Shown piece by piece: positions 1,168-16,135 of a DNA stretch of 16,370 nucleotides. Under the pieces are notes generated by a model. The model was not told the DNA's origin. It made no database searches and worked only from the letters and a program-made list of their open reading frames with translations. Where the stretch lies: UHGV virus genome UHGV-1639282, one strand, 5' to 3'. This stretch comes from a virus. The position numbers and the translations under genes were made by a program. Each line of letters starts with the position of its first letter. The first letter of the stretch is position 1.

Positions 1168-1527
1168 TCACCCTTTCTTCATCAACTCGCGTTTAATTTC
1201 ATCGGTACGCATCGTGACATCGGCAGCTGTGATCGCCTCGTTAAGTTTCACGATGTCCTCGATTTCCTGCGGTGTCTTCTCCGCAAGATGGAAAATAGCA
1301 GCACGAATCACATCAGAGCGGGTGAATTTCTCGAAGCGAGGGATGAACTTCATCATCTCCAGCAGTTCGAAGTATTCGTCCTCCAGTGACATTGTGCGGC
1401 TTTTAATTTTCTCTTTGCCACGAGTCGGGCGTCCCTGTGGTCTGACTGGTTGGCGCAAAGGAGTTGTGTTCTTAGCCGGTGCATCAGGCTCTTTGCGCTT
1501 TGCTAGGTCACCCATTTTCATGGACAT
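1168..1527 (-). CDS. Small basic protein (119 aa), possible ParG-like partner of the ParA-like ATPase
   Basis: Start ATG overlaps the upstream gene's stop (TAATG at 1525-1529). The N-terminal ~45 residues are Lys/Arg/Pro-rich and look disordered (KRKEPDAPAKNTTPLRQPVRPQGRPTRGKEKIKSR). The C-terminal part (KFTRSDVIRAAIFHLAEK) looks like a strand-helix unit. The function is inferred from gene context only. Confidence 0.45.
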   Translation of the reverse strand: MSMKMGDLAKRKEPDAPAKNTTPLRQPVRPQGRPTRGKEKIKSRTMSLEDEYFELLEMMKFIPRFEKFTRSDVIRAAIFHLAEKTPQEIEDIVKLNEAITAADVTMRTDEIKRELMKKG

Positions 1528-2195
1528 TATTCTTCTTCCTCCAGACTCAACAGATAATCTACAAATTCTTCAAACTCGGCTTCCGCCTTTTTGTCGCGCT
1601 CGCTACCGGTCATTTCAAAGATAGAACGACCAGACTCTTCCGCATCATCATAGACGTTGCGGTTATATAGATTGACTGGCGCAGACTCGATGCCAAACGT
1701 CTCAACAATCTCTTTAGCCGCCAAAATGCGAGACACTTGTGATGGCAAAGCCGGGCACTGGTTCATGACCGCGCGGACCTTCACTTTATCGTTCACATTA
1801 CGAACATTGTCGATAATAGGATCGATGTCACGCAGAGATTTCAAATCACGACGCTTAGGACGAAGCGGGATAATGATAACGTCGGCCATCAGCATCGCTT
1901 GTCGCTGAATTTCGGAGTCAAAGCCACCAGCATCTACCACTACATACTCAGCTCTACCCTGAAGCGATTTTAGGTGCTTAATGATGTCATCCTGAACGTA
2001 TGCAAAAGGAATCAGCTCAAGGTCTTCGTTCTGTCGACGGTCTTCACACCAGCTTGTTGTCGTGCGCTGAATATCTATATCAGTGATATAAACCTTCTTC
2101 TTCTTTTTGACTTTCAGGCAAACGGCAATTTGCTGGGCAACAGTGGATTTGCCAGGCCCGCCCTTTGTGCCGCCAACCACAAAGATCTTGGTCAT
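1527..2195 (-). CDS. ParA/Soj/MinD-family ATPase with deviant Walker A (222 aa)
   Basis: N-terminus MTKIFVVGGTKGGPGKSTVAQQIA contains the deviant Walker A KGGxGK[ST]. A VVVDAGG motif follows, and the size matches small type-Ib partition ATPases. The protein ends in an acidic tail (LSLEEEE). ATG at 2195-2193 with AAGGGA ~9 nt upstream. Confidence 0.8.
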   Translation of the reverse strand: MTKIFVVGGTKGGPGKSTVAQQIAVCLKVKKKKKVYITDIDIQRTTTSWCEDRRQNEDLELIPFAYVQDDIIKHLKSLQGRAEYVVVDAGGFDSEIQRQAMLMADVIIIPLRPKRRDLKSLRDIDPIIDNVRNVNDKVKVRAVMNQCPALPSQVSRILAAKEIVETFGIESAPVNLYNRNVYDDAEESGRSIFEMTGSERDKKAEAEFEEFVDYLLSLEEEE

Positions 2196-2514: not shown

Positions 2515-2784
2515 ATGTCCGCACTGAAAAAGCAGCGCATCGATTTGAGATTAACCGATGACGATAAAAGCATCATCGAGGAAGCTGCCGCAATGTCTAA
2601 CCAGAGCATTACCCAGTTCATGGTTAGCAGTGCATCCGAACGTGCCGTGAAGGTGATAGAGCAACACCGTAGACTGGTTCTAAGTGAAGAGTCCTGGAAT
2701 CTGGTTATGGACGCTATAAGCAATCCTCCGGCACCGAACGACAAGCTGAAACGAGCTGCCAATCGTCTGAAAAGCATGGAGTAA
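2515..2784 (+). CDS. ataR: DUF1778-type RHH antitoxin (AtaR/TacA family)
   Basis: 89 aa: MSALKKQRIDLRLTDDDKSIIEEAAAMSNQSITQFMVSSASERAVKVIEQHRRLVLSEESW. It closely resembles AtaR/TacA sequences as I recall them, and it sits 7 nt upstream of a GNAT toxin gene. ATG with AGGGGG SD. Confidence 0.88.
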   Translation: MSALKKQRIDLRLTDDDKSIIEEAAAMSNQSITQFMVSSASERAVKVIEQHRRLVLSEESWNLVMDAISNPPAPNDKLKRAANRLKSME

Positions 2785-2791
2785 TTTACTC

Positions 2792-3313
2792 GTGAGCAAT
2801 ACGACGATCGAGATTTTCTCTGGAGAGAACGATTATGATCTAAACGGTTTTGATTGCGGCGAAGAGTCACTAAACGCATTTTTGACCAACCACTTAAAAA
2901 GACAGCATGAAGGAAAAATTCTTCGCGCTTATGTGCTTTGCACTAAAGAAGAAATACCAAAGGTATTAGGTTATTACACTTTGTCAGGCAGCTGCTTTGA
3001 GAAAGAAACCTTACCTTCAAAGAGTCAGCAAAAGAAAGTGCCTTATCGGAATGTCCCAAGTATCACTTTAGGCAGACTGGCTTTGGACAAATCTCTTCAA
3101 GGTCATGGGCTTGGCTCAATGCTTGTAACACATGCAATGCGCGTTGTGTACAATGCATCTCTTGCTGTAGGCATTCATGGACTTTTCGTTGAGGCGTTAA
3201 ATGACAAAGCCAAGGCGTTTTATAAAAGTTTAGGCTTTATCCAGCTGGTTGGTAACAACGAGCGTTCTTTGTTCTATCCTACAAAATCTATCGAAAAATT
3301 GTTCGAAGAATAA
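2792..3313 (+). CDS. ataT: GNAT-family acetyltransferase toxin (AtaT/TacT family, aminoacyl-tRNA acetylating)
   Basis: 173 aa, GTG start with GGAG upstream. Contains the GNAT core LQGHGLGSMLVTHAMRVVYNASLAVGIHGLFVEALNDKAKAFYKSLGF and the N-terminal DYDLNGFDCGEESLNAFL segment typical of AtaT/TacT. Classic antitoxin-then-toxin order. Confidence 0.88.
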   Translation: MSNTTIEIFSGENDYDLNGFDCGEESLNAFLTNHLKRQHEGKILRAYVLCTKEEIPKVLGYYTLSGSCFEKETLPSKSQQKKVPYRNVPSITLGRLALDKSLQGHGLGSMLVTHAMRVVYNASLAVGIHGLFVEALNDKAKAFYKSLGFIQLVGNNERSLFYPTKSIEKLFEE

Positions 3314-3345: not shown

Positions 3346-3561
3346 TCACCAACCACAAACCCTCTCTCCCATCGTATTGTGAAAAAGGATTTGGCGTTCG
3401 GTTTCTTCAGTCATTACATCATTATTGCTGATATAGATAGGCTCAGCCCCATCGCAGAACAACACGCTGGCTGTTTGTGGTTTAATGACGCACCCACTTA
3501 TCATACAACTCACGATGAACGGCAGAAGCATCTTTCTGACGTATTTTACTGCTCGTCTCAT
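3346..3561 (-). CDS. Putative o-spanin (Rz1-like outer-membrane lipoprotein), overlapped architecture
   Basis: N-terminus MRRAVKYVRKMLLPFIVSCMISGC has a basic n-region, a hydrophobic core and a lipobox-like ISGC. It is a short protein with additional Cys residues. It starts inside the 3' part of the i-spanin gene in another frame and extends beyond it. Confidence 0.5.
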   Translation of the reverse strand: MRRAVKYVRKMLLPFIVSCMISGCVIKPQTASVLFCDGAEPIYISNNDVMTEETERQILFHNTMGERVCGW

Positions 3562-3733
3562 TCACCACTTTCACTGTGTTTTGAAGTCGTTTTCTGTCTT
3601 CCTGTTTTGCCTTCTCTTCCATTGCTCGTCGCGCCGCATTCCCGCCCATCGTGTAAGCGCCGACAAGAACGAAAAGAACGGCAGCCAGCGTAATCAAAGC
3701 AACTTTTAGCTTTGTCATCAGGCTGCCTAGCAT
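3482..3733 (-). CDS. Putative i-spanin (Rz-like): N-terminal TM helix plus charged helical periplasmic domain
   Basis: 83 aa with TM segment LKVALITLAAVLFVLVGAYTM followed by a charged helical region (RRAMEEKAKQEDRKRLQ). The ATG is 1 nt after the stop of the upstream hydrolase-like gene. It is short for an Rz protein, so the call is tentative. Confidence 0.5.
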   Translation of the reverse strand: MLGSLMTKLKVALITLAAVLFVLVGAYTMGGNAARRAMEEKAKQEDRKRLQNTVKVVNETSSKIRQKDASAVHRELYDKWVRH

Positions 3734-3734
3734 A

Positions 3735-4427
3735 TTAGACCATCCCTTTCTGGTGTTTTCTTACCTGCGACCAGGCAATGAATCCTGCCACAACAATAGT
3801 GGCAATACCGAAGATGATGCGTACTGTATCCCCGCTAGAGATATGACCTTGTGCTTTATCCATAGCAGCGGAAACCTGCGGCATAACATCGGCCAGCTGA
3901 GCCAGACCAATACCTGCTGTAACAGTTGCGCCTGCGGTTTCTTTAGTTACAGGAACAGCCTTCACGGTTTTCACCGGCTTAACAACGCCAGCTCGACGCA
4001 GACCTTCCTCAATAACTTCTGCCGCATACCAGGTGTTCAGCGTTTTTAGCGGGCCTCGGCCATTCTCGTGGCGAATGATTGCCTCAACCAAAGGTCGAAG
4101 GATGTCGTAATCATGCAGATCGATGATCATGTCTGCGGTTACACCAACGGCTTTAGACACCTCATTAATGTAGGCGTCAGTATTGTTTTCATTCGGCGGT
4201 GCCCAGCGTTCAATAACTTCACGAATGGTATCGATACTTGTGCCGTCTTTTGCGCGACGTTTATCGTGGTAGGTAATTAGAGTCACCGCCAGCGCACGAA
4301 TCCCCCAAACAGGGTCTTTAAACGTGCAAAAGCGCGGTTCGTCTGGATTCGCAACCAGACCTTGCCACGGTGATCCTTTATCAAGATTACCGGGGTTATT
4401 ATTACGAATGCCTCTCGGGGTCTTCAT
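3735..4427 (-). CDS. Putative endolysin-like protein with C-terminal transmembrane anchor (230 aa from ATG 4427; the ORF track's 4454 start is GTG)
   Basis: Starts MKTPRGIRNNNPGNL with a strong SD (CAGGAGA) 8-9 nt upstream of the ATG at 4427-4425. The C-terminus has a Lys/Val/Thr-rich linker and a hydrophobic helix IIFGIATIVVAGFIAWS. The N-terminal motif is reminiscent of phage lytic-enzyme families, but I cannot confirm the family without a search. The lysis role is inferred mainly from the adjacent spanin pair. Confidence 0.45.
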   Translation of the reverse strand: MKTPRGIRNNNPGNLDKGSPWQGLVANPDEPRFCTFKDPVWGIRALAVTLITYHDKRRAKDGTSIDTIREVIERWAPPNENNTDAYINEVSKAVGVTADMIIDLHDYDILRPLVEAIIRHENGRGPLKTLNTWYAAEVIEEGLRRAGVVKPVKTVKAVPVTKETAGATVTAGIGLAQLADVMPQVSAAMDKAQGHISSGDTVRIIFGIATIVVAGFIAWSQVRKHQKGMV

Positions 4428-4440
4428 CCTTGATCTCCTG

Positions 4441-4764
4441 TTATTGCAGTCCACTTTTTACGCCATACGCGGCTAACCCCAAAAGCAGTGCGGTAATAAT
4501 GAACGACGTTATTTTAGAAACAATGCCGCCAAAGAACCCACTTGAGATGGAATCTAACCGGTTAAGGAGTTTGTCCAGATTGGAGTGTTGAATACTATGT
4601 TGCGCCGGGGTCATATCACCAAAGTAGGTTTTCAGCTGATCATTGACCTCCTGGCCAATTTCTTCACGTAGCTCTTTACCTAATTTGCCAACAACCTCCC
4701 GAGCAACGATCGCGGCAATACGCTCAACTTGCTCTGTTGTAACGCCCGCCATCTCGTTCGACAT
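4441..4764 (-). CDS. Small membrane protein, possible holin or lysis regulator (107 aa from the ATG at 4764, which has a GGAGGA SD)
   Basis: The ORF track starts at 4776, but the in-frame ATG at 4764-4762 has GGAGGA 6 nt upstream. There is a soluble ~85-aa N-terminal region and a single C-terminal TM helix (ITSFIITALLLGLAAYGV). Its position immediately upstream of the hydrolase-like gene suggests a holin role, but the topology is atypical. Confidence 0.4.
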   Translation of the reverse strand: MSNEMAGVTTEQVERIAAIVAREVVGKLGKELREEIGQEVNDQLKTYFGDMTPAQHSIQHSNLDKLLNRLDSISSGFFGGIVSKITSFIITALLLGLAAYGVKSGLQ

Positions 4765-5086
4765 GTTTTCCTCCATGAAAAGTCAAATCGGGATGGCGGA
4801 TTTATATCACATTTCACCCTTTTGTTGTAGGTGTGTACTTACCTATCATTCAGCATTGCAACCGATTGATGAGAAAGCACCTACTCCAACCCATCGCCAG
4901 TTATAGATGCTACACGCTTTGTATAAGGTATAGTCGTTCACTTTTTTAACAGCATATATGGGTATGACTGTCTCCTGTCCACCAATGATAGCTTCACCAT
5001 AACATATAGGTGTCGGCAATTTCTGGCAGCCAGTAAGAGAGAGAACAACAGCTATTGTTAGAAATAATCTTTACATCATTTACTCA

Positions 5087-5695
5087 TCAGTTATACAGAT
5101 TTCTATTTATTACCGGTACTCTGCCATTTACGCTAAAACTATGGCCGCCATTAAGTTGGTTTACGAATATCGAGCTAACAGTATTTCCATATGCCGCATA
5201 TCCATAAACCATTGTCATGGCTCCGCCCGGTACTGGAACAGCGGACACATTCGCATATGTTGGGATTATCGCTGGAGGGTAATCAAAAACATGCTCTCCA
5301 GAGCTGTTCCACTCCGTATTATTAAGAAAGGTAAATGAAAGTGGGATATTTGCCGTATTATAGATTTCCTCCCCTTGTGCATTGAAAAAACTCATGCCCC
5401 AAGTTTCTTTTTTGGCTATACCTTTCGAAAATACGTATATCGTGGCACTAGAGTCGCTACCCCGACCTCCGAAACTGTAAATCACCTGGTTGTTACGCAC
5501 TATTCTGTTGGCTATTAATGAAACAGCTTTCGAATAGACAACAAAAATAATCGGTGAACGATCTGGAGATATTTTGGTGTTAAACTCTGTCCCGCCGGAC
5601 AAAGAAACAACCTGCTTTCTCTGAAAAACGATAGGAGACAAAGAAGGAGACATCCAGACCTTCCCGTCAGATCGATATATCTTGCTTCCGTACAT
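5087..5695 (-). CDS. Hypothetical protein (202 aa), Ser/Gly/Asn/Tyr-rich, no signal peptide recognised
   Basis: Complete ORF with ATG at 5695-5693 overlapping the stop of the upstream ORF (TAATG). Composition suggests a beta-rich fold. No family recognised. GC looks somewhat lower than the tail genes. Confidence 0.55.
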   Translation of the reverse strand: MYGSKIYRSDGKVWMSPSLSPIVFQRKQVVSLSGGTEFNTKISPDRSPIIFVVYSKAVSLIANRIVRNNQVIYSFGGRGSDSSATIYVFSKGIAKKETWGMSFFNAQGEEIYNTANIPLSFTFLNNTEWNSSGEHVFDYPPAIIPTYANVSAVPVPGGAMTMVYGYAAYGNTVSSIFVNQLNGGHSFSVNGRVPVINRNLYN

Positions 5696-5949
5696 TATTT
5701 TTGAAAAACCAATATGTTTAAATTACCACTAGCTCCAGACCACGAAATGGTATTTCCAGAAACCGTAAGACTTGTGTACTTTCCATTGGTTACGTCCATT
5801 ATGTAATAGTCGATTCCCAATCCCGCCTCAACCTCATATGTTCTACTTCCTGAACCAGAGGGAGTAAAATAATCGAGGTAATAAACAGGGGCCAACGCAT
5901 TGACCATCTCCTGTCTTGATGGCGACCAAACCTGTGCACCATAGCTCAT
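5695..5949 (-). CDS. Hypothetical protein (84 aa), translationally coupled to the downstream 202-aa ORF
   Basis: ATG at 5949-5947 preceded by AAGGA. The stop TAA overlaps the next start by one base. No recognisable motifs. Confidence 0.5.
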   Translation of the reverse strand: MSYGAQVWSPSRQEMVNALAPVYYLDYFTPSGSGSRTYEVEAGLGIDYYIMDVTNGKYTSLTVSGNTISWSGASGNLNILVFQK

Positions 5950-6086: not shown

Positions 6087-6116
6087 AAGGCCCGCTATCG
6101 GGCCTTAATTTTTATT
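6087..6116 (+). terminator. Intrinsic-terminator-like hairpin AAGGCCCG-CTAT-CGGGCCTT followed by AATTTTTATT (T-tract on the plus strand)
   Basis: Perfect 8-bp GC-rich stem with 4-nt loop and a downstream T-run on the plus strand. It lies immediately beyond the tfa stop (6112-6114). On the minus strand it has an A-tract before it and no U-tract after, so it is best oriented to stop plus-strand (antisense) transcription, or it acts as a weak bidirectional terminator. Confidence 0.4.
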
Positions 6117-6639
6117 CAGGCTTTTGTGGCCATTCAGGATTTGCCGTATCCACACGGCTGACCAGAACACTGTAGCGTTCCCATGCTTCCAGTCGTGTGC
6201 GCTCCTCGTCTGTTGCCATATTCAGCCTGACAGCGCGTTCCAGCGGCTGGATGACTGATTCAGCTTCGGAAAGCAATGCGGCCTTTTGTGATTCGGCCTG
6301 TTGTTGTTGCTCGTCTGCCGTATAAATCCGTTTAACCACAGCTCCGTCCCTGAACATCCATTTACCCGAAATATCAGCCCGGCGATTTGCTGTAATGTCA
6401 GCAACCTCAACCACACTTAAACCTTCTGGATTTATTGTAGATACGTCTTTATTTATAGCCACAATAATTCCATCTGATGTGTAAGCAATTTTTATAGTGT
6501 CATCCTGGAAGTTCTTTTGTTCCTCATACCAGTTTTTACCGTCTTCAGAATACAACCAGACAACACCAAATTGTCGCGTCAATTCATATTGTTCAACAGT
6601 TTTTGGATTACCTGATCTGATGTTTTTTAAATGCTGCAT
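6112..6639 (-). CDS. tfa: Tail fiber assembly protein (Tfa-like chaperone)
   Basis: 175 aa. C-terminal region [25 protein letters not shown] matches the conserved end of lambda-type Tfa proteins as I recall them. Its start is 2 nt after the side tail fiber stop. Confidence 0.82.
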
Positions 6640-6641
6640 AA

Positions 6642-9600
6642 TTAAATACTTCCCGCGTTATACCATGTACCATTGATACAATACTGCACCGGCCTTGCCT
6701 GAGTTGTATCAATAAGTTCGTCCTTATTTGAGTTAATTGAGGCAGTAACAACATAACCAGATTTATCGTTCCATCCAGGACCATTCCATGTTTGCACAGA
6801 CGATTTTGTACCTAATCGAATACCTGTAATAAATCGTGAATTACATTCTGCTTTGGTATATGCCCCAACATCTCCCGCAGATGGTTTGCGTGTTGTAGTA
6901 TAAAATTCCGACCAGTCGGCTTCAAAACCATAACCGTCACGCGCAGAACGATAATAAATACCGCCGTTCTTATAATTCACGCGGAACTGTACAGCAGGGC
7001 AGCTCCCCGTATTCATATTGAAGTGGAGGATTAATGTCGATGCTCCACTGATATCTGCATCATAAACACCGCTATTCCAGTTCCAGCCAACAGCTTTATC
7101 ATTTGCAACCCTGCTTCCTGTTTGCCCTAAAGCAAATGCAGGCTGCTGGTTTTTCGTGTTGTAGTCTCGTCGCCAGCCAGGAGCATAAGCATCACCATGA
7201 TTAATATAAGTGAATTGTGCATTAGTAGTTCCGCCACCGCTGGAAGTGCTCGGGGTGGTTACACGGATGGTCATGGCACCTTTATTACCCATAACCTCAA
7301 TAACGCAACCAGCAAGGTGAATAAGTCCACATCCGGTGTCAGTAATAATTTTATTATTGCCGTATGACCATGAGCATTTACACATCCAGTATGGATGATT
7401 GAAGGCCCACTGAGATTCCAGCCATTCAATAAATTGCGCCGTCGTCCAGTTTCCTGCACCTGTGCTAATAGAGCCATGAAAAGAGCGGCAAGCACCTATT
7501 GTTTGCGTAAATTTATCTTTGTTTGGAATATCTGCGCCGTTCTGGTTTTTCTGTAATGCTCCTGCGGCTAATTCTACAGTTTGCTCAAGATTTAAATCTG
7601 CCGCCGTTAGCTCAATATTTTTAGAACCGTCAAACGACACCCCATTTATAGTTCTAGCGGTTTGTAACTTGGTCGCTGTAGCCGCGTTACCGGATGTATT
7701 CTGATTACCCGCAACGTTAACACCAGGTAAATTAATATTCGCAGTGCCATCGAAGCTAACACCACCGATGGTTCTTGCTGTCGCAAGTTTTGTCGCGGTA
7801 GCAGCATTCCCCGTGGTGTTCTGGTTACCAGCAATGTTTACACCCGGCAGGTTGATATTGGCGGAGCCATCGAATGACACGCCGCCTATTGTGCGTGCTG
7901 TTTGCAGTTTTGTTGCAGTTGCAGCATTACCGTTCAAACTACCATTGATGCCGCCAGTAACATTGAGTCCATTACCAATGGACACAGCACCGCTGGTATT
8001 ATTAATTGTAATAGGTCGCAAACCGTTCCATGAACCTAATGTGTCTCCTGATGCTGTTAGCATGAAATATGTGTTCGATCCATCATTACGGATAAAGAAC
8101 CCAAAGCTACCGTAAGCAATGCGGAAACCATTTGCATATTTTGAAATGATCTCGCCAGAAGATGTCAAACCTCCAGATAATGTACCACCGGTAAGAGGTA
8201 ATGCACCGACATCAGCCGCAGTAGGCTTGTTTTTAGTGTTATAAGAACGACGCCAGCCTGGCGCATAATCACTCCCATTGTACACATAAATAAATTCCGC
8301 ATTATTAACACCACCATGACCTGATGTTGTTGTCGTTGTAACACGAATAGTGTAGTGGCTTGTTGACTTATTACTAAACACCTCAATCACGGAACCAGAT
8401 AGATCGATCCTACCGCAACCAGTGTCGTCTATATAATTATTGTTGGCGTAAGCCCATGAGCACCGTGCAATCCAATATTTGTTTGAAAATGCACCCTGAT
8501 TATTTAGCCAAGTTATAAATTGAGCAGTCGTAAATGGCGTTCCGTTACCACTATTTAACCATCCAGCGGCAGCGGTTGGCGCGTTTATATCAGCCGGCTG
8601 AGGCATAAATCCAGTCGTGTAAACCTGCTCCCAACCACTTTCAAAACCATAGCCATCGCGAGATGAACGATAAAACAACCCACCATTTTTATAGTGAGCC
8701 TTAATTTGAAGCGTACGGCAACTACCTACACCAGTATAAAAGTTGGCAAGAATATAACTGTCGCCCGTTCTAGTTACATTATAAGCACCAGATTCAGCAT
8801 TCCACGGCACGCCGCCATCAGCATCAGCATATGACCCTGTTGCTCTTCTTGCGAAAGCGGCAACATGCGCGGCGGTTAAAGTGATATCAGTAGAGCCATC
8901 AAATGGAACACCGGATATTTTTCTTGCAGTCTGAAGTTTCGTAGCTGTATCAGAGTTCCCCTTAACCCCTTTTGGAGAATTAAGTGGTGTATTGATCGTC
9001 ACTTCACCTGTTGCGTTATTTACTGCAAATGGTCGAAGACCGTTCCAGCCACCGTACTGGTCGCCTTTATCAGTCATGAGCAAGTAAGTATTTGCTCCAT
9101 CATTTCGCCATATGACACCGTAATCGCCAGCAATCATCCTTAACGCATTCTGACTACGGACAATAACTTCATCATTAGCGTAAACCTTATTACCGCTAAT
9201 ATCCGCATTTGTGAGGAGTGCGTGCGAACTATAGAATCCTCTACCGTTGGAGAAATCAAGTATAGTATCAGCGTCCACGCATTCTGTTCTAGGGTCTGTA
9301 GCGCCCCATTTGTAAGTTGATTGCCCGATAACATAATCGGCAGATGGTACAACAACAGATAAGCCTTCTTCTACATATACAGCAATAGGAAACGCTTCAC
9401 CTTCAACATAGAACACAGAACACAGATCATCCGCTTTTCTACCCATCATGATAGAATGAATAGCACGCTCATTTGCGTGATAGATATGAAACATTCCATA
9501 AGCATAATGTCCCCTGTCAGTCCAACCGCCAGGCATGACAAAACCATTGAACTCACAGTTGTTCATCCTATCATTGGCAGTCTTTGAACTTGTACTTATC

Positions 9601-11297
9601 GTCACCCTGGATGCTAATTCACTGCTGAATCCAGAAGAACGACGAATAACCACAGGGTAAAACTTACCAGCTTCAACTCCTGCGGGCGCATTCACTGTTG
9701 AATACTTCATTCCTCGTTTAGCGGCCATATCAGTCTTGCTGGCAGCATTAATGTTGCTCAGGAAGCGGCCCTTGTCTGGGATATCAGCGCCATTCTGATT
9801 CTTCGCCAATCGGCTATTCGCATTGTCATTGGCTGCTTTTACTGCCTTTGGCGTTGCCGCCAGCGTTTCAGACGTGCTGTTGGTCGCACTGCTGAGCTGT
9901 ACTATCCCCTTTTTCGTCGTGCTCGCATCCTCAAGCGCCACAGCGGATGCAATATCCTCTGCCCGTTTTGCCGCTGTCTCGGCGCGCGTTGCCGCGGATT
10001 CTGCCGTACTTTTGCTCTGTGCTGCCGCCGTCGCACTGCCAGCTGCCTCTGTCGCCTTCGTGGATGCCGTCGTGGCGCTGCCCTTCGCTGCTGACGCTTG
10101 TCTGGTCGCCTCATCTTTTGAAGCAGACGCAGATGATGCCGATGACGCCGCCGAACTGGCTGACGATGCGGCAGCCGTTTTTGAGGATTCTGCGCTGGTT
10201 TCCGACGCTTTCGCGTTCGTTTCGGATGTCTTCGCTGCGGAAGCAGACCTCGCTGCTGCGCTGGCCTGTTCAGTGGCTTCGCCAGCCTTCGTTGTGGCTG
10301 TTGAAGCAGACGATGCGGCGCTTTCTGCCGATTTTCCGGCGGCGGTGGCACTGGCTGAGGCCTGCCCGGCACTTGTTGACGCGGCACTGGCAGACGACGC
10401 AGCCGCTGTTTTTGAGCCTGCCGCAGCTGAGGCGCTCTGTCCCGCTGCCGTCTCAGAAGACTTAGCGTTCGTCTCGGACGTTTTTGCCGCCTTCGCGGAA
10501 TTTGCTGCCGCCGTTGCCGAGGAAGCTGCGCTACTGGCGCTCAAGGATGCGTTCGTTTCTGATGATTTCGCTGCCTCTTTTGAGGCCGCCGCATCCCGGG
10601 CTGAGGTGGCAGCTTCTGACGCTTTCGTGGTCGCGGTGGATGCAGAAGTGGCTGCTGATTGTTGTGACGCTGCGGCATTCGTTTCAGATTTTTTCGCAGC
10701 AGTTGCACTCGCACTTGCGGCACTTTGTGAGGATGCCGCATCGGATGCACTTTGAGACGCTTGAGAGGCTTTTTCTCCAGCGGTATTGGCGCTTTCTGCT
10801 GCTGCGGCAGCACTGGCCGCCGCCTCACGAGCTTTGTCGCCAGCAGCATCAATCGCGTCAGTGTTATTTTTATACCACTCAACGTTTTCGTTGTGCTCGT
10901 TGACGATCTGCATTAGCGGCTTAACGGTTACTTCTGTACCGTCTTCACGCTCGATTGTCACCTCATCCAGCGCAGTCAACCAACTGCGCATGGACTTGGA
11001 ATCAGCCGACATACGCGACATTAGCGCAGTAAAGCGCGCGCTAAACTGTGTTAAGTCGCCTTCATAGGTCGTAATGATTCGGCACGGAACCTCAGACTGA
11101 GTTTCGCCGGTATAAGGTTCTGAGAGAACAATGTTCGTATCACTGGTTACGCGCTTGATCTCATACAGCTTATTGTCGGGGCCAATGACGATCATCCCCG
11201 GCAACACACCATTAGCTGTTACGTTCCAGGCTGTCCCTGCCCCAACCAGAGTATTGCTACCCTGTGTAAATGTGATAGTACCTTCCCTGTACCACAT
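6642..11297 (-). CDS. Side tail fiber protein (Stf-like), 1551 aa, mosaic
   Basis: ATG with AAGGAG 8 nt upstream. Long Ala/Ser/Thr-rich shaft containing [24 protein letters not shown] and [42 protein letters not shown], which I recall as near-identical to lambda Stf. Phage tail fibre repeats ([29 protein letters not shown]) in four copies. Duplicated distal modules, followed by tfa. Confidence 0.9.
7590..7945 (-). repeat. Three tandem ~120-bp coding repeats (phage tail fibre repeat, ~40 aa each) inside stf; a fourth isolated copy near 8880-8960
   Basis: Protein repeats [40 protein letters not shown] x3 with matching DNA periodicity visible at 7600-7940. The isolated copy reads [29 protein letters not shown]. 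Boundaries are approximate. Confidence 0.6.
9950..10850 (-). repeat. Low-complexity GC-rich (GCN-codon) Ala/Ser/Thr-rich shaft-coding region of stf
   Basis: About 300 aa dominated by A/S/T with recurring KTSETNA/SASAA motifs. Its lack of stops in several frames produces the long spurious overlapping ORFs on both strands in the supplied track. Boundaries are approximate. Confidence 0.6.
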
Positions 11298-11390: not shown

Positions 11391-14300
11391 TCACAGACGG
11401 CCAATTCTTACTCGTAGGACGTTGTTATCGTCATAAACGTCAATCCGCTGACCATTTATAACCAATCGCCCATTGCCGCCGCTATTACCGTTGATCTCAA
11501 GCGTTCCATTTTTGCCGAACCGCCATCCAGATCTACCGCTAACAAAATTGGTAGATTGCAGATCGCCTACTTTTGCATTGGTGATTGTGCCATCCTTGAT
11601 ATACGCTCCATTCATATAGGCGATACTGTTTTCGATAACAAATGGCGTTGTGATCTTCCCGTTAACAGAGTTGACCAAACCAAACCTGTCCGCCTGAACC
11701 AAAAACTGAGATAGCCCAGTGGTGTCAATACCAAGCGCAATACCGGCAACATACTTCTGCCCTCCGCTCGTTGAAGTCTCCATTTTCAACGTCCACGCGG
11801 TTGATACTTTTTTGTTGGTATCAGCAATAGCTGTTGCCTGCTGTTGAATTGTCGCGGTATTTCCATCCACCTCTGCTTTCAGAGTATCGATTCGCCCACT
11901 CAGAGCATTATCTGCCTGCGTTCTCGCTGTCGTTTCAGTTGTTACCGCCGCGGAAATGTTGGCTGCCGTTTGAGACTCTAAGTTTGTGATTTGAGTCGCC
12001 AATGCAGCATCTTGCTCTGTACGCGTTTTCGTTTCGGTTGCTACAGCCGCTTTAATATCCTCTTTGTATTGAGAGGTCAGCTTGGTGATCTGAGACGACA
12101 ACGCCGAGTCAGCATCAGTTCGAGCCTGCGTTTCAACTGCAACGGCCGCACTAATATCTTTCGCTGTCTGTGCTTTTAAACTTGAAACCTCTTTTGTTAA
12201 AGCGGTATCACCATCTGCACGAGCCGTTGTTTCTCTGGCAAGAGACGCCTCGAGATCATTAGCTTTTGCTGTAAGAGACGTAATCTGGGTAGACAATGCA
12301 CTATCGGCATCAGTCCTTGCTTTTGTCTCTACAGCAACCGCTGCGGCAATATCAGTTCCGGTTTGTGCTCGCAGGCTGTTAATTTCTCGTGAGAGCGCCT
12401 GGTCAGCACTTGCTCTGGCCTCCTGCTCCTGAGTGATGGCAGCGGATATATCACCGTCAACCTTTGACTGAAGCTGGTTTATTTGTTTGGCTAACGCAGA
12501 GTCCCCGCTTGCTCGGGCCTCCTGCTCACTACGTATTGCAGCAGAAATATCATCATCAACCTTTGCCTGAAGTTGGGTGATCTGGCTTGCCAGAGCCGAA
12601 TCTTCCGTTGCTCGGGCTTCTTGCTCTTCCTTAATAGCTGCGACGATATCGTTGCTTACTTTCGACTCAAGCTGAGTGATCTGTGTCGTCAGAGCTTCAT
12701 CGGCAGATGTACGAGCCTCCTGCTCTGTACTAATCGCCGCGCTGATATCTCCTTCAAACTTAGATTGCAGCTGAGTGACACGCTTTGCCAACGCTTCATC
12801 GCCATCGGCACGAGCGGTGGACTCTTCCAGAATACTGGCCTTAATGTCTTCGCCAATTTCTACGCGAATTTCCTCAACCTTCGTGGCCATTGCAGACATA
12901 TCATCAGCAAAGGTTTTCTGTGTTGTTGCGATCTTCGCGTTATTGACCATCTGCTTGTGCTGGTCTTCATCTTGACGAAGAGCCAGGTCAATATTTGTTT
13001 TGGCTAACGCCTCAATGTTCGTAGTCAGTTCTGCACTGGTACGATCGACCTCTGCAACCGTCTTTTTCATTTCTTCAACGGCAGCGGAGCTTTCCTCTAC
13101 CGTTGACTGCAACACTTCCAGTTGTTTAGCGTTTGCAGCATCGCCTTCAACACGAGCCTCGCTTTCCTTAGCAATAAGAGCCGCCGCTTCATCTCTTGCA
13201 GCCTTTATTGCCTCGACTGTATTAGCGAGAGCTTTATCGTGTTCAGATACGGTGTTTTCGATTTCAACAATTGCAGCATCAGTAGCATCAATTTTTTCAA
13301 ACGCTTCATTGACCTTGTCGATCGTTGCCGAAACCTCACCTTTAAGCTCGGTTTGTGCGTTCTCCAAAGCATCGCTACGCTCGTTGAATTTTATTTCAAA
13401 ATCCGCGAGGTTATCGCTGAACTGCTTATCTAATTCAGCTATATCTTCCTTAACGTCGTTTACCGCCCCCTCCAAAGATTCGACGCTCTGGTTGATATGC
13501 TCATTTAACTCGTCAACTGCTTCTTGAGAGGCTTTGCTGTTGATGTCCTCAAGCAGAGCCTGACCAAGCTCGGAAGATGTAATTTTGCCAGTCAGGAACG
13601 ACAGTACATCGCGAGTTGTCGCCTCTGTACCCAAGTTTGAGTTCGGAGGACTTAACATACCTCGCTTGTTCGATGCTCGAACCCAGTAATACCACGTTTC
13701 GCTATCCCCAAGACCAGCATGTGTAAAGGTGGTGCTTGCAGACTCTGCGATCAGTTTCGCCGTATCCAGATTGTTGGTCTGGGATGCGTAAACATTAATG
13801 TGATCAAGGTCTACCGAATCTGGATTAACCCAATTCAGTATCACATTACGATAGTCTCCAACGGCCGTTAATGACGTTGGGGAATCCGGCGGTGTCATTG
13901 TGCCCAACACCTGATAAACGGCACTGATAATCTCTGTTTTTTTACCGTTGAATGAAACCGCATACAGCTGGAAGTCGTAGCGTCCATTCTCCGCGACATT
14001 AACGATTTCGTATTGCTCTTCGGTTACACGCGCCGATTGCCAGTTCGATACATTGTTTTCATCAGAACGTCGCCAACTGATCCAATACTCTGGAGATTTC
14101 CCTTCCCATGTTGCAGTCAGTTTTACTGACAGGTTGCCCGGGCTTGAGAGATAAGTCCCTTCAGTGATTTGCAGATTAGATGGCTTGGAGTAAGTTGGGT
14201 CCAATACCGTCGTATTCTGCGGGATCAGCGTTGCACCATTGTCGATTGCCTCATATTTAGACGGATTGTTCTCAACAGCGGTGATGTCAAAGCTACCCGG

Positions 14301-16118
14301 CGTTTCCCCCTGCGCGATGTTAACGATGCGAACGCGCATAGGTTCGAGGTCTGGTTCTGTAATAGTCCAGACGCCGTTCAAAACAGGCGTTTCAGCCGAA
14401 GACAGGGCTTTTGAAAACGTAACTTTTGTTATATTTTCGCCAGTTTCAAGAACATCGCGTTCAACGATTTTGCCTTCCTGATTCAGTATTCGAATAAAGC
14501 AGCCGCCTTTGGCTAACGACACAGGCGCATCGAGTGTGACGCTGTTTTTGGTAAACGCCACAATTCGACCTGAGTTACGTTTGCCTGCGCGATATTTGTT
14601 CTGAATCAGAACGGTTTCACCAGGCATCAGAAATGACGCGTCTAAGCCGGCAGTAAATGTAATTACATCCGACTCCATTCTGGCGGTATATAAAAGCCAC
14701 AAACCAACTCGGTGAGCCTGCCCTCGGCTTGTACAGCCAAATGCTACGACTTCTGTTTTACGCTCACCATAACGGCGCATTGCGTCCTGATCTTCGACGT
14801 ACTCGATGTTTTGCTTATAACCGTCCTCCTTGTTGTTGTAGGTTACGAGCGCAACGGATGGGCGATCTTTACGCGCAGAACCTTTATAGGTAAACAATCC
14901 ATCTTTGACGTTAGAGTTGGTAAACATCATTACCGGATCTGATGGGCTATCCTGCATGATGTTAACCATCCCACCAGCCCAAAACACCATGCCGCGGAAT
15001 GCTCCGGCAATATCCTGAATTAGCCGGTATGCGTCCTGTCGACTGGTGATCTGTGTATTGATTGCAAAGCGTTTCTCTTTGCCACCAAAGCCATCATCGA
15101 CCTCTTCGTCACAATATCGACCAATCTGGTACAACTGGCCAAGGTCAATCATAGATTCCGACACATACTGACCAAGGCCATATCGAGCATTGGTCAGCAA
15201 ATCAAAGAGAATCCACGCGGGGTTCGAAGAAGACAACAGCTTAAAAGTGCCATCCCATACACCATCATAAGTGTTGCTGGCCTCGTTGTAGTTTGACGGC
15301 ACGCGAATTTTTAATCCACGTACCAAATACGAACGAGATGGCATGGTGCTACCAAACTGCTCAGAATTAACCTTCAGACCCACCAGCACAGAGTTTGGGT
15401 AGTTCATCGGTGTATCTACAATCTCACCTATTGAGTCCACCCATGTATCGTTATAGAGATACTGGCTGCTGTTATCATCGGTAATACGGACCACACGAAC
15501 CTTGTATGCTCGTCCAGGCTTAGGCAGCTTCAGCTCATAGCTACGGTAATAAACGCCGGTCTTCTTTGCTGTTAGCTTAATGCCAACGCTTTTTTCACCT
15601 TCAGCGACCACATCTACAAATGTTGAGTCGCCATTTGCTATCTGGAACTTGTACTCAACAGTCGTACCGTTCGTGTCACCAGTTTTTTTATCTATGCTTC
15701 GCAAAGAAGGAAACTTCATGATGACACGAACCCGATCAGCTTCATCGTTATCGATTGAAACCGTTACATAATGTGTTTTTTTTAACTGGATATTGACGGA
15801 TTTAGGCGTTTCAACGAAATCAAAGCCAGACATTGGAGTCTGGTCTTGTGAACCGTCGCGAAAATCCCATGTGATTCCGCTGAAGTTGGAGGAACCGTCT
15901 TCATTTACAATCGGCAGATCGTCGATAAAAATAGATCTTGCGCCATTTACTAAGCCGCCAATTACCCCTTCCCCAAGAAGATCGAGGATAGCGGCCATTG
16001 CACGAGAATTTACGGTATCGTCGGCTTCAACCGGTGTACGGCTGGAGCTTTTGCTGCTTTTTTTACCACCCGCACCGGCAATAAACAGCGGTAGCTTTTT
16101 CTTCTTGAACTGTTCCAT
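11391..16118 (-). CDS. J-like tail tip / host specificity (central fiber) protein with extended coiled coil (~1575 aa from ATG 16118; the ORF track's 16124 start is TTG)
   Basis: The N-terminal ~650 aa carry lambda J-like motifs (AFGCTSRGQAHRVGLWLL, PAWILFDLLTNARYGLGQY) and the C-terminus has KYVAGIALGI...QFLVQADRFGL, also J-like. Between them is a ~600-aa alpha-helical region that includes ~10 tandem 33-aa repeats. The ATG at 16118-16116 has AAGGA upstream. Confidence 0.9.
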   Translation of the reverse strand: MEQFKKKKLPLFIAGAGGKKSSKSSSRTPVEADDTVNSRAMAAILDLLGEGVIGGLVNGARSIFIDDLPIVNEDGSSNFSGITWDFRDGSQDQTPMSGFDFVETPKSVNIQLKKTHYVTVSIDNDEADRVRVIMKFPSLRSIDKKTGDTNGTTVEYKFQIANGDSTFVDVVAEGEKSVGIKLTAKKTGVYYRSYELKLPKPGRAYKVRVVRITDDNSSQYLYNDTWVDSIGEIVDTPMNYPNSVLVGLKVNSEQFGSTMPSRSYLVRGLKIRVPSNYNEASNTYDGVWDGTFKLLSSSNPAWILFDLLTNARYGLGQYVSESMIDLGQLYQIGRYCDEEVDDGFGGKEKRFAINTQITSRQDAYRLIQDIAGAFRGMVFWAGGMVNIMQDSPSDPVMMFTNSNVKDGLFTYKGSARKDRPSVALVTYNNKEDGYKQNIEYVEDQDAMRRYGERKTEVVAFGCTSRGQAHRVGLWLLYTARMESDVITFTAGLDASFLMPGETVLIQNKYRAGKRNSGRIVAFTKNSVTLDAPVSLAKGGCFIRILNQEGKIVERDVLETGENITKVTFSKALSSAETPVLNGVWTITEPDLEPMRVRIVNIAQGETPGSFDITAVENNPSKYEAIDNGATLIPQNTTVLDPTYSKPSNLQITEGTYLSSPGNLSVKLTATWEGKSPEYWISWRRSDENNVSNWQSARVTEEQYEIVNVAENGRYDFQLYAVSFNGKKTEIISAVYQVLGTMTPPDSPTSLTAVGDYRNVILNWVNPDSVDLDHINVYASQTNNLDTAKLIAESASTTFTHAGLGDSETWYYWVRASNKRGMLSPPNSNLGTEATTRDVLSFLTGKITSSELGQALLEDINSKASQEAVDELNEHINQSVESLEGAVNDVKEDIAELDKQFSDNLADFEIKFNERSDALENAQTELKGEVSATIDKVNEAFEKIDATDAAIVEIENTVSEHDKALANTVEAIKAARDEAAALIAKESEARVEGDAANAKQLEVLQSTVEESSAAVEEMKKTVAEVDRTSAELTTNIEALAKTNIDLALRQDEDQHKQMVNNAKIATTQKTFADDMSAMATKVEEIRVEIGEDIKASILEESTARADGDEALAKRVTQLQSKFEGDISAAISTEQEARTSADEALTTQITQLESKVSNDIVAAIKEEQEARATEDSALASQITQLQAKVDDDISAAIRSEQEARASGDSALAKQINQLQSKVDGDISAAITQEQEARASADQALSREINSLRAQTGTDIAAAVAVETKARTDADSALSTQITSLTAKANDLEASLARETTARADGDTALTKEVSSLKAQTAKDISAAVAVETQARTDADSALSSQITKLTSQYKEDIKAAVATETKTRTEQDAALATQITNLESQTAANISAAVTTETTARTQADNALSGRIDTLKAEVDGNTATIQQQATAIADTNKKVSTAWTLKMETSTSGGQKYVAGIALGIDTTGLSQFLVQADRFGLVNSVNGKITTPFVIENSIAYMNGAYIKDGTITNAKVGDLQSTNFVSGRSGWRFGKNGTLEINGNSGGNGRLVINGQRIDVYDDNNVLRVRIGRL
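11870..12870 (-). repeat. About ten imperfect tandem 99-bp repeats encoding 33-aa coiled-coil units (consensus approx. DISAAIxxEQEARxxADxALxxQITQLQSKVxx) within the J-like gene
   Basis: The protein-level repeat is obvious in the translation. A DNA periodicity of ~99 bp is seen in recurring motifs such as GCTCGGGCCTCCTGCTC at ~12415, ~12513, ~12612 and ~12711. Boundaries are approximate. Confidence 0.65.
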
Positions 16119-16135
16119 GTTCAAAAAATCCTTGT

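Follow-up and report, generated by a model that had tools for sequence, protein, structure and literature searches.

A phage J-like central tail fiber protein with a 33-residue repeat array that matches the motif of fold-switching fibers

The subject of this analysis is the J-like central tail fiber (tip attachment) protein encoded on the minus strand of UHGV virus genome UHGV-1639282, a stretch of viral DNA of 16,370 nucleotides (nt; hereafter the window) that is part of an SSU5-like phage-plasmid (siphovirus). Between its hub and its tip domain the protein carries a long shaft, and the array of 33-amino-acid (aa) units within that shaft matches the motif of the fold-switching segment of F-type pyocins and yields both states, helix and sheet, in structure prediction. 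The J protein is a long, very regular, phage-borne case of the coiled-coil-to-beta-prism fiber described in 2026, and its shaft is probably more than a passive stalk. The explanation we favor, and consider reasonably likely, is a central fiber with a metastable trimeric shaft that carries side fibers and refolds to a beta-prism, so opening the tail tip. The parts of the gene were placed as follows.

11391..16118, minus strand: complete gene of the J-like central tail fiber (tip attachment) protein (open reading frame list and translation, Pfam domains, near-identical relatives)
13587..16118, minus strand: N-terminal part (aa 1-844) with the hub and fibronectin-III (FNIII) domains, a homologue of residues 3-837 in lambda J
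13278..13586, minus strand: first shaft part, aa 845-947, heptad-like, non-repetitive, poorly conserved, with insertions and deletions among relatives (periodicity, conservation)
12849..13277, minus strand: four degenerate hairpin-type units, aa 948-1090 (paired reverse and forward motif matches)
12849..13073, minus strand: conserved shaft island, aa 1016-1090, candidate docking site (conservation)
11862..12848, minus strand: ten regular tandem 33-aa (99-base-pair, bp) units, aa 1091-1419 (unit layout and column profile)
11394..11861, minus strand: C-terminal non-switching fiber domain, aa 1420-1575, Phage_Tail_Tip / DUF1983 (PF09327, alignments, AlphaFold2 strands)

In the F7 pyocin, a 163-residue trimeric coiled coil of the central fiber converts to a beta-prism (PMC12874032 sections 5, 6, 10), and this conversion, which was demonstrated experimentally, causes the tip to open and the tape measure protein to be expelled (PMC12874032). 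Side fibers of F-pyocins attach to the shaft (PMC12874032), and independent F-pyocin structures are in agreement (PMC13455828; bioRxiv 10.64898/2026.02.24.707460). The defining motif of the switch is SxSxxMxxLxS, alternating in orientation on successive strands, with Glu or Asp at M pairing with an Arg four residues off, and with small residues at the S positions that are buried in the prism only (PMC12874032). Each of the ten regular units of the window protein carries the reversed motif at positions 4-14 (strand A) and the forward motif at positions 19-29 (strand B), and over these 20 strands the S and L positions fit in 80 of 80 cases. The M position of strand A was Glu (position 9) in all ten units, each with Arg at +4 (position 13), while strand B had Ile or Val at this position in every unit. 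Within aa 1091-1420, 34 motif matches were counted, against 10.6 +/- 3.1 in shuffled sequences. Two opposed motif strands fall within each unit, and one unit is therefore one predicted hairpin. Twenty-four phage fibers were analysed by He et al. 2026, the main text of which makes no mention of SSU5, repeats or hendecads, and publications on hendecads in the tails of phages or on the tail fibers of SSU5 yielded nothing on these repeats.

Two periodicities coexist in the array. The hydrophobic period of aa 845-1090 was 3.55 residues (power 3.6 vs 0.7 +/- 0.2 in shuffles), and that of the repeat array was 3.65 residues (about 11/3, hendecad-like), some 24 standard deviations (sd) above shuffles, so that one 33-residue unit corresponds to three hendecads, or nine turns. 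The initial annotation had named heptad/hendecad periodicity as a way of checking its coiled coil, and both periods indeed stood far above shuffles. On the Kyte-Doolittle scale the strongest peak of the array lay near 2.06 residues, a spacing that alternating residues in beta strands would give.

The same duality was seen in structure prediction. From the single sequence without an alignment, AlphaFold2 modelled aa 1081-1436 as helix, with predicted local distance difference test (pLDDT) values of ~70-85 in most blocks. Given a 28-sequence alignment, it folded aa 1223-1433 into a beta-meander of 13 strands of 13-14 residues (mean pLDDT 77.6, predicted template modelling score 0.60; confidence ~55 rising to ~90 toward the tip domain), and these strands lay at unit positions 2-15 and 18-31, two per unit and in the register of the motif. 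At the start of the tip domain, AlphaFold2 strands at aa 1420-1433, 1438-1449 and 1455-1464 (pLDDT 80-90) were in register with the array; this stretch forms strands in the alignment model, but the single-sequence helix reaches aa 1436. In fibers of the F7 type, about three prism strands at the start of the non-switching tip domain act as a seed. A helix without an alignment and a sheet with one is, on the evidence of these models, the behavior published for fold-switching fibers, for which AlphaFold2 returns the prism from deep alignments and the coiled coil from shallow ones (PMC12874032).

The main rival, which we regard as unlikely, is a passive stalk: a stable trimeric coiled coil would set the distance from the tip to the fiber end, the number of repeats would adapt its reach (for instance to how thick the host surface is), and there would be no refolding. 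The strong helical periodicity, together with the lack of any proline in aa 845-1420, the helical single-sequence model, the tolerance of relatives for 1 to 10 tandem units, and the fact that lambda and T5 function without such a switch (PMC12874032, discussion) are all in keeping with it, but it leaves unexplained the 80/80 motif positions, which are relevant for the beta state only, and likewise the invariant Glu-Arg pair, the ~2-residue period, and a confident beta model in exact unit register. The extended trimeric coiled-coil stalk of the initial annotation is thus retained as regards helical periodicity, the single-sequence helix and trimeric homologues, but not as a mere spacer, since the motif fits a fold switch. 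A shaft that folds straight to a beta-prism or beta-meander in the mature virion, and is never a coiled coil, is a still less probable alternative. The best alignment-based model is all-beta in the repeat region, and the tip domain that follows is beta in the same register, yet homologous shafts are trimeric coiled coils in three cryo-electron microscopy studies of F-type pyocins (PMC12874032, PMC13455828, bioRxiv 10.64898/2026.02.24.707460), and both the 3.65-residue period and the single-sequence model speak for a helix. Residues 821-1172 of phage T1 gp33, at the C-terminus of that protein, were too flexible to resolve and are predicted by AlphaFold3 to form a ~37 nm protrusion (PMC11945409), which also argues against a beta-only fiber.

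Several points weigh against the fold-switch explanation itself. The switch has been demonstrated only in a pyocin and is a prediction for phages, and the F-pyocin shaft is described as mainly heptad-based, whereas the array here is hendecad-like. The AlphaFold2 runs were of monomers, so the prism could not form; the other four models of the alignment run reached mean pLDDT values of only 52-63, and the N-terminal strands have pLDDT 55-60. A Foldseek search of the beta model against the PDB returned generic beta-meanders with template modelling (TM) scores <0.45 and no prism, the low-scoring matches being porins, apolipoprotein B and the lambda open-state fiber. No homologues of the pyocin tip adhesins (PyoF11/F12) were found next to J, the docking site described below was assigned from conservation alone, and the tolerance of relatives for 1 to 10 tandem units would equally fit a passive spacer.

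In the mechanism that we favor, three J copies would close the tail tip through their N-terminal 840 residues, and the next ~590 residues would, by homology, form a long trimeric alpha-helical shaft ending in a small beta tip domain. The 33-residue unit would be a two-state module, either helix or beta hairpin, and three side fibers would dock, each by an OB-type domain at its N-terminus, on a shaft island that is conserved and non-repetitive. Upon receptor engagement, the metastable shaft would refold, from the tip domain upward, into a triangular beta-prism, and this refolding would shorten the fiber by tens of nm, open the tip, free the tape measure protein and start DNA delivery, in the manner of the F7 pyocin. 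Geometry calculated from standard values (0.148 nm per helical residue, 0.48 nm per strand) gives ~4.9 nm per unit as helix (nine turns) and ~1 nm as a beta hairpin. The ten units would then measure ~49 nm as helix and ~10 nm as 20 strands, a contraction of ~39 nm, and the whole helical region ~88 nm as helix.

The J reading frame begins with ATG and encodes 1575 aa plus a stop codon in 4728 nt, with an alternative TTG start at 16124. Pfam domains in the protein were FNIII-A_GpJ at aa 102-236 (E 1.5e-29), Phage-tail_3 at aa 358-521 (E 7e-34), fn3 at aa 645-728 (E 2.9e-5) and Phage_Tail_Tip PF09327 (formerly DUF1983) at aa 1423-1557 (E 1.4e-41), and the protein terminates 18 aa past the last of these. 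In phmmer searches against solved structures, aa 19-861 aligned to residues 3-837 of lambda J (8iyk_J, E 5.6e-124), and aa 1419-1547 to residues 840-971. Because the flanks align in this way, the helical region (aa ~845-1436, ~590 aa) has been inserted at one site in the lambda J plan (residues 837/840, which are adjacent in lambda), in accord with the initial annotation, which had described a J-like tip protein with a helical insertion of ~600 aa. The C-terminal domain also matched the C-terminal part of the F2-pyocin fiber (to residue 1193 of 1204) and the end of T1 gp33. The resemblance to gpJ that had been claimed for both ends of the protein is sound for the N-terminal part and for the C-terminal ~150 aa, which are the counterpart of the lambda central straight fiber domain, but it does not extend to the LamB-binding end (lambda J ~972-1132), for which there was no counterpart and no lambda alignment past residue 971. 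The LamB-binding domain is specific to lambda and its close relatives, and is not general to the J family. Lambda gpJ (PDB 8IYK, 8XCI) is thus homologous to the window protein in its first 840 residues and in the central straight fiber domain, and differs in having no helical shaft and in carrying a C-terminal LamB-binding domain. A further point of difference may lie in the side fibers, which in Ur-lambda attach around the distal tail protein and not to the central fiber (PMC13455828 section 2.3).

Within the shaft, the first part (aa 845-947) showed identities to relatives of 0.19-0.56 and low occupancy. The four degenerate units that follow are spaced by ~32 aa, with reverse/forward SxSxxMxxLxS pairs at aa 948/963, 980/995, 1012/1027 and 1061/1076, and a non-repeat segment (KTNIDLALRQDEDQHKQMVNN, aa ~1040-1060) breaks their series; a hidden Markov model (HMM) of the unit matched the degenerate region at aa 980. 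In the regular array, typified by the unit DISAAIRSEQEARASGDSALAKQINQLQSKVDG (aa 1190-1222, window 12453-12551), nine units are of 33 aa and unit 7 is of 32 aa. The BLOSUM62 self-score at an offset of 33 was 2.18, compared with -0.29 +/- 0.11 in 2000 shuffles (z = 22.5), with 49% amino acid identity at that offset, and this supports the near-regular 33-aa array that had been read in the second half of the insertion. Seven unit columns are invariant (A4, E9, R13, D17, A19, L20, L27), and two others are kept in 9/10 units. Pfam searches with the shaft gave only sub-threshold matches to generic coiled-coil families, and no named repeat family covered the unit.

The repeats are much less evident in the DNA. 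Identity between units was 39-66% (mean 52%), the longest exact run in any pair was 12 nt, and Tandem Repeats Finder (TRF) detected just 2.2 copies, at 12409-12626, because the DNA units have diverged to this extent; the array is therefore defined at the protein level. The initial annotation had described about ten tandem 99-bp DNA repeats at ~11870-12870 and had named a tandem repeat finder as a check. The period, the register and, at 11862-12848, the location were confirmed, but the description needs the qualification that the ten units are seen in the protein only and that the DNA copies are diverged. The array consists of old, diverged repeats in which the 99-bp period and the register have held.

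Counts of tandem units in the window protein and its relatives, made with the unit HMM and alignments, were as follows.

Window and Escherichia phage Cyrano: 10 tandem units
PhiR41_1 and proteins P0001-P0008: 9 tandem units
Yersinia pestis pMT1: 6 tandem units
Salmonella phage SSU5: 5 tandem units
Protein P0073: 4 tandem units
E. coli 1229-aa type: 1 tandem unit

The other SSU5-like J proteins share with that of the window the gene position, the N-terminus, the shaft island and the tip domain, and all copy-number differences among them are of in-register whole units. Every relative, even the 1229-aa type, keeps the degenerate units, the island and at least one regular unit, and this minimal span (degenerate units plus one regular unit) is about the size of the F7 switch. 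One natural variant, P0007, has nine units and is near-identical to the window protein save for one missing unit. In a DNA alignment with the contig that encodes it (L004), the junction of the 99-bp deletion fell inside a 10-nt microhomology, CAAAGGTTGA, a pattern found twice in the window against 0.04 matches expected.

12457-12466 and 12556-12565, minus strand: two CAAAGGTTGA copies exactly 99 bp apart, near the ends of units 4 and 3 (deletion junction)

This junction points to a microhomology-mediated deletion. In L004 (Logan SRR7786745, 1-4941), P0007 is a 5'-truncated J of 1146 aa with Mu-like Mor and GemA genes immediately upstream of it, and the contig is either a recombinant prophage or chimeric.

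The variant that lacks exactly one unit would also be expected if the 99-bp repeats were mainly a hypermutable DNA tract, a contingency locus with frequent changes of fiber length within populations. This we consider very improbable, given units that are only 39-66% identical, a longest common exact run of 12 nt, the 2.2 copies found by TRF, and the fact that the ~80 listed relatives with at least 94% identity (the 60 best, three of them with insertion sequence (IS) insertions, and 20 full-length rows from an even sample of the ranking) all span 4731-4734 nt, that is, ten units. Since all of these have ten units, copy number is fixed within lineages and varies between them. The change of copy number between isolates that had been foreseen is therefore real as whole-unit differences among relatives, but was not seen among these close ones. 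Similarly, the proposal that the repeats are a substrate for slippage or recombination is borne out by the one 99-bp deletion at a 10-nt microhomology, but frequent slippage or RecA recombination is not expected because the DNA units are too diverged. Copy number changes rarely, via in-register 99-bp deletions or duplications at short microhomologies. The J protein of pMT1 (L007 1656-6251) is intact, at 1531 aa with six units and a downstream fiber gene, and thus a gene for a fiber of the fold-switch type is preserved in a plasmid that is not generally considered to be a functional phage.

Among solved structures, the closest match of the whole J protein was the F2-pyocin central fiber (25vf_A, E 7.4e-154), ahead of phage T1 gp33 (9l9p_S, E 6.3e-132). 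A second aligned stretch of the F2 fiber, residues 884-1193, paired with aa 1242-1547 (shaft and tip) at an i-E-value of 5.4e-23, and a C-terminal query gave a whole-sequence E of 1.2e-24. The only pyocin chains returned by the PDB sequence searches were those of F2, and the test of homology to pyocins was made on F2, not F7. The F-type pyocin central fibers (F7 CFP; F2 fiber PDB 25vf; PA0641) have in common with the window protein a J-type hub with an FNIII N-terminus, a helical shaft inserted ahead of a DUF1983-type beta tip domain, alternating SxSxxMxxLxS with Glu-Arg pairs, helix and beta AlphaFold2 alternatives, and a side fiber with an N-terminus homologous to the shaft-docking domain. 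They differ in that the window protein is from a DNA-containing phage whereas the pyocin is a tailocin, and in length: the F7 segment has 163 aa, the regular array of the window 330 aa, or up to ~470 aa if the degenerate units are counted in. The window protein has a clean hendecad-like 33-aa tandem array and the pyocin shaft is mainly heptad-based; moreover, the window has no PyoF11/F12-like tip proteins adjoining J, and its side fiber, of 1551 aa, has an S-type tail fiber end as in PDB 8ju3 and 5yvq. Phage T1 gp33 (PDB 9L9P; PMC11945409) is a siphophage J homologue with 33-aa repeats of the same type and a common C-terminal ending (LRVQIGRL vs LRVRIGRL), but it is of 1172 aa with few units, and no fold switch or repeat analysis was reported for it (PMC11945409).

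The genes directly downstream of J specify the side fiber and its chaperone.

6642..11297, minus strand: side tail fiber, 1551 aa, directly downstream of J (two Gp34_trimer matches, S-chain match)
10977..11297, minus strand: side-fiber N-terminus (phmmer match to 25ve_A, 'F2-pyocin side fiber', E 4.7e-4, aa 2-107 vs 3-104)
6112..6639, minus strand: tail fiber assembly chaperone for the side fiber, 175 aa (Pfam Caudo_TAP, E 6.4e-38; PHROG 136, E 2.1e-80)

In the F2 pyocin, the N-terminal (OB-type) domain of the side fiber docks on the shaft (PMC13455828 section 2.3). Over the first 110 alignment columns, the side-fiber N-terminus of the window was 86% identical in SSU5 and 78% in PhiR41_1, and the remaining fiber differed, including in length. 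Its C-terminus matched Tail fiber protein S chains (8ju3, E 1.3e-196; 5yvq), and Cyrano has a counterpart that bears the annotation of a tail fiber and homologue of phage P1 S. That counterpart is of 1341 aa, as compared to 1551 aa here, although the J proteins are 98.6% identical, so the distal fiber has been exchanged. The side fiber also contains an Ala/Ser-rich low-complexity stretch at aa ~150-470, an internally duplicated globular region, and a ~40-aa motif repeated three times (TRF 7699-7928).

A candidate for the corresponding docking site on the shaft is the island at aa 1016-1090, which is proposed on account of its conservation: identity to 15 relatives was 0.74-0.88, against 0.2-0.6 in the flanking shaft. 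The island includes the non-repeat segment, was found in all relatives, including those with one tandem unit, and contains an acidic patch (D1050-E1051-D1052), as does the F-pyocin docking site (PMC12874032 section 5). Unit 7, with its one-residue skip, shows a weak alignment with the acidic kink in the F2 fiber and was considered as a docking site, but it was rejected because SSU5 and the 1229-aa type do not have unit 7, and SSU5 keeps the side-fiber N-terminus. The fiber chaperone is separated from the holin by two ORFs of 84 aa and 202 aa (5087-5949, minus strand), which have no Pfam match; their PHROG matches are 557 ('outer membrane protein') and 425 ('membrane associated protein', in the moron category). 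They were considered as PyoF11/F12-like adhesins and rejected on account of these labels and because Cyrano lacks them at this position.

Searched with aa 1080-1575, a library of 1.84 billion representative proteins yielded 3312 matches at E <=1e-3, of which 242 were at E <=1e-30. The best 145 new representatives had a median of 8 units, with at least 10 in 57 of them and at least 20 in seven, and included P0121 (2138 aa) with 21 units in tandem; this sample favors repeat-rich proteins, since the score accumulates with repeats. A J protein of the Klebsiella branch (L008 3238-15408; NZ_CP022128.1, a K. pneumoniae plasmid) reaches 4056 aa, with the same N-terminus and PF09327 end. Its insertion, at the same site, consists of short coiled-coil segments alternating with about nine globular domains, which may bind carbohydrate, and has no 33-aa units. 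The insertion point in J looks like a hot spot for modular expansion. The central fiber of the window, which had been called unusually long, is not extreme, and that description holds only in comparison with lambda.

The J region was 98.6-98.7% identical to those of Escherichia phages Cyrano and CMS-2020a, and 78% identical, over the 5' part, to that of Salmonella phage SSU5; across Cyrano and many E. coli phage-plasmids the identity of the J gene was 98.6-99.8%. The matching 4728-nt gene of Cyrano is annotated 'tail host specificity protein J'. The window stops just upstream of J, and the order of the tail module was thus taken from Cyrano, SSU5 and PhiR41_1 (J gene identities of 98.6%, 78% and 89%), in which the tape measure gene is followed by M, L, K and I, then by the J homologue and the side fiber gene. 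Plus-strand ORFs overlapping J mostly have TTG starts, and the region is explained by the minus-strand J gene. Partial proteins ending within the shaft are numerous in the databases, as might be expected if an assembly or annotation error had joined J to a separate coiled-coil gene, but the 4728-nt ORF is uninterrupted in two complete phage genomes, 165 of the 473 matching plasmids in PLSDB carry at least 80% of the gene, and the same architecture recurs in SSU5, PhiR41_1 and Y. pestis pMT1. An artefact of this kind, which the initial annotation had itself raised as a fusion that would undo its reading, is so improbable that it can be set aside. The partial entries (P0078-P0118) comprise dozens of J proteins of 943-1090 aa that are 97-100% identical to the window protein and end in the first half of the shaft, where short-read assemblies seem to break, perhaps at points of divergence between co-resident variants.

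On the far side of the fiber genes is a lysis cassette (3346-4776, minus strand), whose holin (4441-4776), endolysin (3735-4454), Rz (3482-3733) and Rz1 (3346-3561, overlapping Rz) follow the order of the lysis genes annotated in Cyrano. Beside it, a two-gene pair (2515-3313, plus strand) specifying an 89-aa antitoxin and a 173-aa toxin looks like a toxin-antitoxin system of the KacAT type, and the Cyrano counterpart of the toxin gene, at the edge of the locus, is annotated 'KacT Acetyltransferase-type toxin'. Judged by sequence, ORFs of 222 aa and 119 aa (1168-2195, minus strand) resemble a ParA-type partition gene accompanied by a small partner. The toxin-antitoxin and partition candidates would represent plasmid-maintenance functions adjoining phage late genes. 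Phage-plasmids like SSU5 are frequently found in clinical E. coli, Salmonella, Klebsiella and Yersinia pestis (pMT1) and often bring resistance genes with them.

The source of energy with which non-contractile phage tails breach the cell envelope is an old question; the coiled-coil-to-beta-prism switch reported in 2026 was demonstrated in a pyocin, and its occurrence in phages was predicted. The gene described here puts a very regular, long version of the switch element in a real, cultivable phage family. It is possible, though we advance it only tentatively, that each 33-residue unit is one quantized and evolvable step in a molecular spring, ~4.9 nm when loaded and ~1 nm when discharged, such that the number of units would set reach, stroke and contraction energy (~39 nm for ten), and lineages would tune the number of whole units (1-10 in SSU5-like phage-plasmids, at least 21 elsewhere) to the host surface. 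If so, the family would be a natural dose series for envelope penetration powered by a fold switch in non-contractile tails. Relatives differ by whole units only, with the same island and tip, and therefore offer ready-made variants for tests of stroke length and stored energy, and the register of two strands per unit offers a simple rule by which such switches could be found and engineered.

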